Sequence record: PQ511151.1
DNA from: Escherichia phage NHEP36
Length of the DNA stretch: 64,000 bases
Strand: one strand, 5' to 3'
Part shown: positions 26,788 through 27,684 of the stretch, in pieces
Position numbering within the stretch: the stretch's first letter is position 1
Layout: each line of letters begins with the position of its first letter
Program-made: the position numbers and the translations under genes
Notes under the pieces: model-generated
The model's input: the letters and a program-made list of their open reading frames with translations, nothing else
What the model was told of the DNA's origin: nothing
Databases searched by the model: none

Positions 26788-27252
26788 ATGATTACTATTG
26801 GTGAAATTAAGCGTGTATCAACTGCATCCCGGTCTAAAGCCGCAGGTCGTCTGGTTGAAGTTGTCGGACTTCGCACAAATGGCATGGGACGTATTAAAGA
26901 AGTTAAAGTTCGAATCATTCCTAGTTTTGGACGTCAGGATACTCAGTACGCTTACGTAAGTCCTAAATTCCTGGAAAAACATATACGAGTCCAATTTGCT
27001 TCAAACGATATCGTTGAGCCTAATGTACAGTTCAAATGGGCCCTTTGCAAAGGCGTTGAATTTATAACCGATAAAGAATTTGATTACATCGACGAATATG
27101 GCTATCCAAGCACAACTGATACTATGTGCGGCTTCATCAGCGACCAATGGGTTGAAGATGGTAAAAAGCTATACAATATTGTATTCTTAGGTGACTTCCG
27201 AGTTGTTGAAGAATCTGAAATCACTCGCTATGTGTCTCCTCGTAAAGCTTAA
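26788..27252 (+). CDS. Hypothetical protein, tandem paralog A
   Basis: 154 aa from ATG after AAGAGAG; shares VSTASRSKAAGRLVEV and GFISDQWVEDGKKLYNIVF blocks with the next ORF. Confidence 0.6.
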   Translation: MITIGEIKRVSTASRSKAAGRLVEVVGLRTNGMGRIKEVKVRIIPSFGRQDTQYAYVSPKFLEKHIRVQFASNDIVEPNVQFKWALCKGVEFITDKEFDYIDEYGYPSTTDTMCGFISDQWVEDGKKLYNIVFLGDFRVVEESEITRYVSPRKA

Positions 27253-27264
27253 GGAATTATTATT

Positions 27265-27684
27265 ATGAATATTGCAAATCTCTCTACAAGTGATTACGTA
27301 TATGTATCTGTTGCTTCTCGCTCTAAAGTTGCTGGGAAGTTGGTTGAAGTTCTTTCTGTAAGTTGTGGACTCTTTAGTCCACATCAAGTTAAAGTTCGTG
27401 ATGCTGATGGCAACATTGGCTACGTCTCAAGCCAATTCATTGAGCCAGAAGAAAAAGCGTTCAAATGGGGATTATGCAGATCAGTTTCTGTTGAAAAAGA
27501 CCATGAATTCACTATTGCTGCGGCAACTGATGGAACACCGTGGAAAACTAAGCAAATCGCTGGATTTATTAGCGACCGTTGGGTAGAAGATGGTGTCAAG
27601 CTTTATAACATCGTTTTCGCTGGACAGTTCATGGTAGTTCCTGAATTCCAAATTAAAAAATATAGCCCAGCTGCTTTCGCATAA
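27265..27684 (+). CDS. Hypothetical protein, tandem paralog B
   Basis: 139 aa; VSVASRSKVAGKLVEV and GFISDRWVEDGVKLYNIVF. Confidence 0.6.
   Translation: MNIANLSTSDYVYVSVASRSKVAGKLVEVLSVSCGLFSPHQVKVRDADGNIGYVSSQFIEPEEKAFKWGLCRSVSVEKDHEFTIAAATDGTPWKTKQIAGFISDRWVEDGVKLYNIVFAGQFMVVPEFQIKKYSPAAFA

Follow-up and report, generated by a model that had tools for sequence, protein, structure and literature searches.

What are the two related genes that stand side by side in the early region of Escherichia phage NHEP36, and does the second do the same work as the first? The question comes from a sequence-only reading of a 64,000-nucleotide stretch of this phage's DNA (sequence record PQ511151.1; hereafter the window, position 1 being its first letter), which described the two open reading frames (ORFs) as a tandem paralogue pair of unknown function downstream of dexA. 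Results of our analysis indicate that both encode members of the MotB family, that they probably form a two-gene early transcription unit, and that the second gene, copy b, differs consistently from the first, copy a. The pair is already known and annotated; the new part is the description of how its second copy differs.

26788..27252, + strand: motB copy a (ORF a), 154 aa
26788-26976, + strand: N-domain of copy a, residues 1-63, net charge +7
26977-27030, + strand: linker of copy a, residues 64-81 (18 residues)
27031-27249, + strand: C-domain of copy a, residues 82-154
27265..27684, + strand: motB copy b (ORF b), 139 aa
27265-27444, + strand: N-domain of copy b, residues 1-60, net charge 0
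Residues 61-65 of copy b, + strand: linker of copy b (5 residues)
27460-27681, + strand: C-domain of copy b, residues 66-139

Family Identity of the Two Copies

Both ORFs are present on the + strand with the lengths given in the sequence-only reading, and the three blocks that it listed occur in each of them: VSTASRSKAAGRLVEV in a and VSVASRSKVAGKLVEV in b, FKWALCK in a and FKWGLCR in b, and GFISDQWVEDGKKLYNIVF in a and GFISDRWVEDGVKLYNIVF in b. The similarity is not confined to low-complexity segments, the outcome of which that reading had warned. In BLASTP with composition-based statistics, 60 of 140 aligned positions are identical (43%; 92 bits, E=1e-29), and the alignment spans residues 10-148 of a and 14-133 of b; the resemblance covers both domains and is due neither to low complexity nor to chance. 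A longer, 168-aa form of copy a starting at ATG 26746 was rejected, as this ATG falls within the spacer of a promoter-like element (see below) and the Pfam and PHROG profiles match from residue 1 of the 154-aa form.

The label of unknown function does not hold for either gene. The Pfam model PF17613 (motB, modifier of transcription), with a curated gathering threshold of 25 bits, is matched by copy a with 133.2 bits (E=1e-38, profile positions 2-157 of 162) and by copy b with 75 bits (E=8e-21), while phrog_1671 (MotB-like transcriptional regulator) is matched over the full length of both (E=6e-64 for a, E=4e-49 for b). The MotB of phage T4 has been characterised, and genomes nearly identical to the window annotate the pair. 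Identity to T4 MotB is 47% (over 155 aa) for copy a and 37% for copy b. By its sequence, copy a is the orthologue of T4 MotB, whichever history of copy b applies, and copy b reads as a deep-branching, divergent MotB paralogue.

Membership of the pair in the LSm-like MotB.1 family was considered and rejected: the match to phrog_2333 (MotB.1) is limited to the final 32-35 residues of the C-domains of a and b (E=5e-8 and 4e-9), and a joint alignment places both N-domains with MotB, not with MotB.1. Weak phmmer matches of the b N-domain to long repeat proteins (P0132, P0139, and P0141) concern SH3_3, NHL, and Ig repeat proteins and were treated as generic beta-repeat similarity. A search of NCBIfam with the pair gave no matches. 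A sequence search of the PDB gave nothing below E=0.7, which indicates that no MotB structure has been solved.

Differences Between the Copies

Both copies are predicted to have the two-domain build of the family, with an SH3/KOW/Tudor-like N-domain and a beta C-domain, each small and all-beta, and the C-domains of both carry the family motif G(F/Y)I(S/T)DQWVEDGxKLYN. The AlphaFold2 (AF2) models have a predicted local distance difference test score of 82 for copy a, with residues 66-78 below 50 (a predicted disordered linker), and of 83 for copy b, which has no such linker.

The differences lie in the charge and build of the N-terminal part. The calculated isoelectric point (pI) is 8.5 for copy a and 6.7-6.9 for copy b, compared to 9.23 for T4 MotB. 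Among 123 family members, the net charge of the N-domain is +6.3 in a-type, +5.2 in T4-type, and +4.9 in Dhakavirus/Gaprivervirus-type proteins vs. -0.3 in b-type proteins, and the linker has 5 residues in the b-type vs. 15-47 in all other types. The N-domain of copy b has lost 7 of 12 basic residues, as well as the IIPxxGxxxx hairpin extension (6 residues), and the protein is nearly devoid of a linker. The variable basic residues are missing from it; what it retains are the family-invariant segments SRSKxAGxLVEV, VKVR, YV, FKW, and DxWVEDGxKLYNIVF. No b-type sequence departs from this pattern of N-domain charge, hairpin length, and linker; the differences are fixed.

Expression Signals

26729..26757, + strand: sigma-70/T4-early-type promoter-like site, TTTACA-17 nt-TATAAT, 11/12 consensus match
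26776..26780, + strand: Shine-Dalgarno-like purine-rich GAGAG, placed 7 nt 5' of the copy a ATG, as read from the sequence
27250..27267, + strand: a-to-b junction, TAAGGAATTATTATTATG, where a's stop codon and the AAGGA ribosome-binding site of b overlap
27690..27717, + strand: next promoter-like site, TTTACT-16 nt-TATTAT with TG, from a pattern scan; it precedes the MotB.2-like gene

The early promoters of T4 have the form GTTTACA...TATAAT, which the 26729-26757 site resembles. This site has the top score in a scan of 26000-29700, lies 30 nt 5' of the ATG of copy a, and is the sole good promoter match before the pair. The promoter-like sequence is also found upstream of motB_a in NHEP29 and ST2, and the record of phage GiZh has a promoter-like feature annotated at the equivalent place. 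No promoter- or terminator-like site was seen in a scan of the + strand between a and b. The junction has the conserved general form TAAGGAATTATT(ATT)ATG, of 9-12 nt; it is TAAGGAATTATTATG in 14 of 14 other genomes examined, and the window carries one additional ATT. The overlap between the stop of a and the site at which ribosomes would bind for b suggests coupled translation. The candidate promoter at 27690-27717 appears to start the following unit and to mark the downstream boundary of the pair, itself outside it. The pair would thus be a two-gene early transcription unit served by one upstream early-type promoter, and the combination of this unit with the MotB identity of its products is, with good confidence, the best overall explanation of the locus.

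Selection and Age of the Split

Comparison of a and b by the NG86 method gave a nonsynonymous distance (dN) of 0.58 and a saturated synonymous distance (dS) of about 2, and the best DNA repeat between the genes is 49 nt long with 71% identity. The saturation of synonymous sites and the low DNA identity indicate that the split is old, which agrees with the age, if perhaps not the mode (see below), of the old tandem duplication proposed earlier. Recent gene conversion between the copies in the window was rejected, given that the longest DNA repeat is the one just mentioned.

Selection was estimated from 15 genomes (105 pairs, mean dS 0.41-0.46) taken from GenBank phage records, because a scan of IMG/VR yielded only 3 loci with copy b. 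For the whole gene, copy a has a dN/dS of 0.23 and copy b one of 0.15. By segment, it is 0.27 (N-domain), 0.58 (linker), and 0.15 (C-domain) in copy a, and 0.16, 0.32, and 0.15, respectively, in copy b. Copy b has 139 aa in 15 of 15 genomes, and copy a varies between 151 and 165 aa through linker indels. From these ratios and the constant length of b, both copies are functional and under purifying selection, b being the more constrained, so that the earlier statement that both have been kept is borne out.

The linker of copy a (26977-27030) is an indel hotspot: phage F2 and one IMG/VR contig have an 11-residue insertion repeating a local FAS motif (VQFASSEEVAPAHFAS), and 3-6 residues are lost in other genomes. 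The N-domains of copy a are mosaic, with a T4-type segment in LF82-1 and one IMG/VR contig.

That copy b is a degenerating relic or has no function left might be supposed from its shorter length and the loss of charged residues and of the linker. This idea is refuted by the intact 139-aa frame in all 15 genomes, the dN/dS of 0.15 at a mean dS of about 0.4, and the conserved ribosome-binding site, as well as by approximately 207 database records at 80% or higher identity and a confident AF2 fold, and we consider it virtually dismissed. Redundancy of the copies, the second only raising the dosage of one MotB activity, deserves more attention, as one family model is matched by both over both domains, the genes are by all appearances co-transcribed, and dosage can matter, motB overexpression being reported to enlarge T4 plaques (PMC6070864). 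However, identity between the copies is only 43%, their synonymous sites are saturated, they differ systematically in N-domain charge, hairpin, and linker, and the stronger constraint on b is unexpected for a spare copy; redundancy is therefore in our view unlikely.

Distribution and History of Copy b

In sequence terms, the window belongs to a Mosigvirus-like T-even phage about 97% identical to NHEP29. A megablast search with 26000-29700 retrieved 478 phage records, the best being Escherichia phages NHEP29, JN02, GADS24, and NHEP11 at 97% identity, which annotate "MotB-like transcriptional regulator (x2)"; those relatives to which a taxon has been assigned (PhAPEC2, JS09, HX01, and NicPhage) are Mosigvirus. 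A tblastn search of 50,697 phage records found a-type sequences (at least 60% identity) in 202 records and b-type sequences (at least 80% identity) in 207, with none of the latter at 60-80%. Copy b lies directly 3' of copy a in every genome opened, namely PhAPEC2, JS09, HX01, NicPhage, NHEP29, LF82-1, ST2, and F2 of Mosigvirus, as well as GiZh, PP01, and RB10, which are classified as Tequatrovirus. In all, the pair co-occurs in approximately 200 sequenced T-even phages, comprising Mosigvirus and part of Tequatrovirus. Phages T4, RB32, and Dhakavirus WG01 have one full MotB and a MotB.1-like gene sharing only the C-terminal motif. The family as a whole is narrow: its profile gave 157 matches at E<=1e-3 among 5.8 billion proteins. 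A search with copy b alone among 1.84 billion 50%-representatives gave 23 matches, in which the b-type is a single cluster and the next-best full-length matches are ordinary MotBs at 40-46%.

Bootstrapped neighbour-joining (NJ) trees, free of chimeras and rooted with MotB-like homologues from a Klebsiella phage and Enterobacter phage Entb_45, group copy a with the T4-type and the Dhakavirus/Gaprivervirus-type single-copy MotBs to the exclusion of b. Bootstrap support for this grouping is 94% with the N-domain, 68% with the C-domain, and 99% with full-length sequences, while a and b as sisters get 0-15%. Because of this grouping, a simple, recent tandem duplication in situ is doubtful as the origin of the pair. 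A midpoint-rooted NJ tree of 123 members, which placed b beside a, was rejected, since three bridging sequences in it (P0022, P0023, and P0028) are a/b or T4-type/b chimeras.

Two histories fit the rooted trees, between which NJ cannot decide: either the two copies separated before the E. coli T-even MotBs diversified, b then being lost from the T4- and Dhakavirus-type lineages, or b evolved fast after a duplication and is drawn to the root. The possibility that b was not duplicated from a in this lineage at all, being a much older paralogue lost elsewhere or an import from a distant phage placed beside motB, is a substantial one, if somewhat short of an even chance. In addition to the tree topology, it is favoured by the short N-domain hairpin (with no IIPxxGxxxx insert) common to b and the Klebsiella and Enterobacter outgroups, and by the presence of the pair in two genera (Mosigvirus and some Tequatrovirus), which implies a mobile or old module. 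On the other side, NJ would give an identical topology if b evolved fast and were drawn to the outgroup by long-branch attraction, no donor lineage was seen in the exhaustive search of 1.84 billion representatives, and the C-domain of b is slightly nearer to that of a (51% identity) than to that of the T4-type (45%).

Natural chimeric motB genes of several types occur in metagenome assemblies (L018 1373-1894, with protein P0022; L019-L021, P0028; also P0023, P0035, and P0036), the source runs being ERR12931180, SRR35550861, ERR1302885, and ERR1302794. In one type, an a-type N-domain is joined to a b-type C-domain in a single hybrid gene that is directly followed by cef. Others are a-type with only a b-type tail or combine a T4-type N-domain with an a-type C-domain, and a chimera of T4-type N-domain and b-type C-domain is present in 5 contigs from at least 3 runs. 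The crossovers lie at the conserved FKW and WVEDGxKLYNIVF motifs. These genes could be real products of unequal crossing-over or, in the single-contig cases, assembly collapses. The "MotB-like" proteins of Klebsiella phage phi1_146055 (L022 1501-1881) and Enterobacter phage Entb_45 (L023 1483-1977) have an N-domain of the MotB type and a C-domain of the MotB.1 type (LLCKAV...GWVTDQWVEDGVELLNVVH). As these two proteins combine both types, shuffling of N- and C-domains between the MotB and MotB.1 families has happened more than once.

Proposed Functions of the Two Copies

Previous studies have shown that T4 MotB is an early protein that binds DNA tightly and non-specifically, co-purifies with H-NS and StpA on DNA, and alters the H-NS footprint; when overexpressed, it de-represses H-NS-controlled host genes and doubles the burst size, and it is toxic in E. 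coli (PMC6070864, PMC7827196). According to Son et al. 2021, as cited in PMC12449154 and PMC13096335, MotB compacts the DNA of the host as well as that of the phage. By orthology, these activities can probably be assigned to copy a. By analogy with T4 MotB, copy a would be produced in the first minutes of infection, coat DNA without sequence specificity, compact the nucleoid, and alter H-NS/StpA-DNA complexes, with an increase in burst size as the result.

Copy b would be produced together with a from one mRNA and, judging from its anatomy, may act as a specialised partner, not as a spare copy. With its rigid, uncharged N-domain and conserved C-domain, it would most likely bind DNA more weakly or bind another ligand, and join or temper the assemblies of a, yet any specific version of such a partner role is tentative. 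Likewise tentative is a fuller version, in which b is a functional MotB subclass not described before, charge-neutral and linker-less, separate since before the T4-, Dhakavirus-, and Mosigvirus-type MotBs diverged and made stoichiometrically with the canonical MotB, the coat of which it caps, spaces, or tempers, or which it redirects to H-NS/StpA. If this were true, nucleoid remodelling in these phages would be a two-component system, of which T4 is a reduced case.

Several points weigh against these proposals. Every functional statement is a transfer from T4 MotB at 47% or 37% identity, the promoter at 26729-26757 is as such only a consensus match, and either of the MotB domains could be the DNA binder (PMC7827196). 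Moreover, the Dhakavirus/Gaprivervirus-type single-copy MotBs have a pI of about 5.9 owing to an acidic linker; a basic overall charge is thus not family-wide, and the neutral pI of b alone does not prove weak DNA binding.

The sequence-only reading had pointed to host-interaction or anti-defence factors. The former holds in a broad sense, as MotB acts on the host nucleoid and on H-NS silencing. As to the latter, early, paralogous genes in a dispensable, variable region are a typical anti-defence setting, and H-NS xenogeneic silencing, which MotB counteracts, may be viewed as a host barrier (PMC7827196, PMC12449154). On the other hand, this is a known family, whose characterised member acts as a general coat for DNA and does not inhibit a dedicated immune system; PADLOC gave no match to the pair, though its library models defence and not anti-defence proteins. 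We regard a pair of anti-defence factors of unknown function as quite improbable.

Whatever the role of copy b, approximately 200 T-even phages keep two MotBs that differ consistently, one basic with a flexible linker and one neutral and rigid. Their comparison would be a natural experiment on the MotB features that drive DNA coating, compaction, and H-NS displacement, and the a/b and T4-type/b metagenome chimeras show where the domains can be swapped.

Gene Neighbourhood

24722..26035, + strand: dda helicase gene
26045..26722, + strand: gene of a dexA-type exonuclease, 225 aa, matching the Rv2179c-like exonuclease domain and phage exonuclease phrog_255
27744..28268, + strand: MotB.2-like gene, 174 aa, 34% identical to T4 MotB.2

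The placement of the pair downstream of dexA was correct: the 225-aa exonuclease gene occupies the position at which relatives annotate DexA. The order of genes in the window is dda, dexA, a, b, the MotB.2-like gene, cef, goF, a 39.2-like Zn-ribbon gene, a 141-aa ORF, and gene 39, so that the pair lies after dexA and before cef/goF/gene 39 within the T-even early region, as motB does in T4.

The MotB.2 homologue (27744-28268), relatives of which match PF26820 (Phage_T4_Y00F), lies downstream of the motB pair in the window, as it does in other Mosigvirus genomes, is upstream, between dexA and motB.1, in T4, RB32, GiZh, PP01, and RB10, and is missing from F2 and ST2. The gene order of the early region around motB is fluid.

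The region 26723-26787 of the window, compared with 2224-2846 of the NHEP29 locus L001, has no 164-aa motB.1-like gene (phrog_2333), which most Mosigvirus relatives have between dexA and copy a; the state of this gene is the same in phage ST2. NHEP29 has two near-identical copies of the early promoter, one 5' of the motB.1-like gene and one 5' of motB_a, and the single promoter of the window is a hybrid of the two. For this reason, the gene (about 550 bp) was probably lost through recombination between the promoter repeats of about 30 bp.

The GoF homologue (28535-28963, 73% identical to T4 GoF) and the 141-aa RB69ORF005c-like ORF (29148-29573) are a second possible paralogue pair, far more diverged: both match phrog_622 (E=3e-38 and 9e-22), but direct BLASTP yields only E=0.02. 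Alignment to T4 GoF suggests that the GoF homologue really starts at an ATG near 28553, which overlaps the cef stop. The 141-aa protein may be a further member of the GoF/MotB.1/Frd.2 LSm-like family (PMC12152347).

Comparison with Known Systems

The end that the MotB proteins would serve, the early relief of silencing by H-NS-family proteins, is also that of T7 gp5.5, T4 Arn, and LUZ24 gp4 (PMC12449154). However, gp5.5 and gp4 act by binding the silencer and Arn is a DNA mimic, while MotB binds DNA itself, and these proteins are unrelated to it in sequence and mechanism. T4 MotB.1 and MotB.1-like proteins (phrog_2333) have in common with both copies a C-terminal core of 35 residues, GW(V/I)TDQW(V/I)EDGVxLxNVV, but their N-domain is of another fold family, LSm-like and related to GoF and Frd.2 (PMC12152347), unlike that of a and b.

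The closest characterised relative is T4 MotB (162 aa), which shares with the pair the family model PF17613, the predicted two-domain beta architecture, the neighbourhood (dda-dexA ... cef-goF-gene 39), and an early-type promoter-like site. T4 has a single motB and this phage has two. Copy a keeps the basic N-domain and flexible linker of T4 MotB, whereas copy b is neutral (T4 MotB pI 9.2), lacks the linker and the hairpin extension, and branches outside the clade of T4 MotB and a.

The motB pair of RB69 and other Mosigvirus phages (annotated twice in NHEP29, PhAPEC2, HX01, and others) is the same gene pair, with the same order and junction. The protein of NHEP29/NHEP11 matches copy b at 100% identity, those of RB69/JN02 match copy a at 88-94%, and the window differs from most genomes with the pair in the missing motB.1-like gene. 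The presence of two motB copies in RB69 was noted in 2021 (PMC7827196); the literature on the pair counts the copies without describing their differences. The pair of NHEP36 thus adds no new kind of system, but it sharpens the question of how phages take over the nucleoid.
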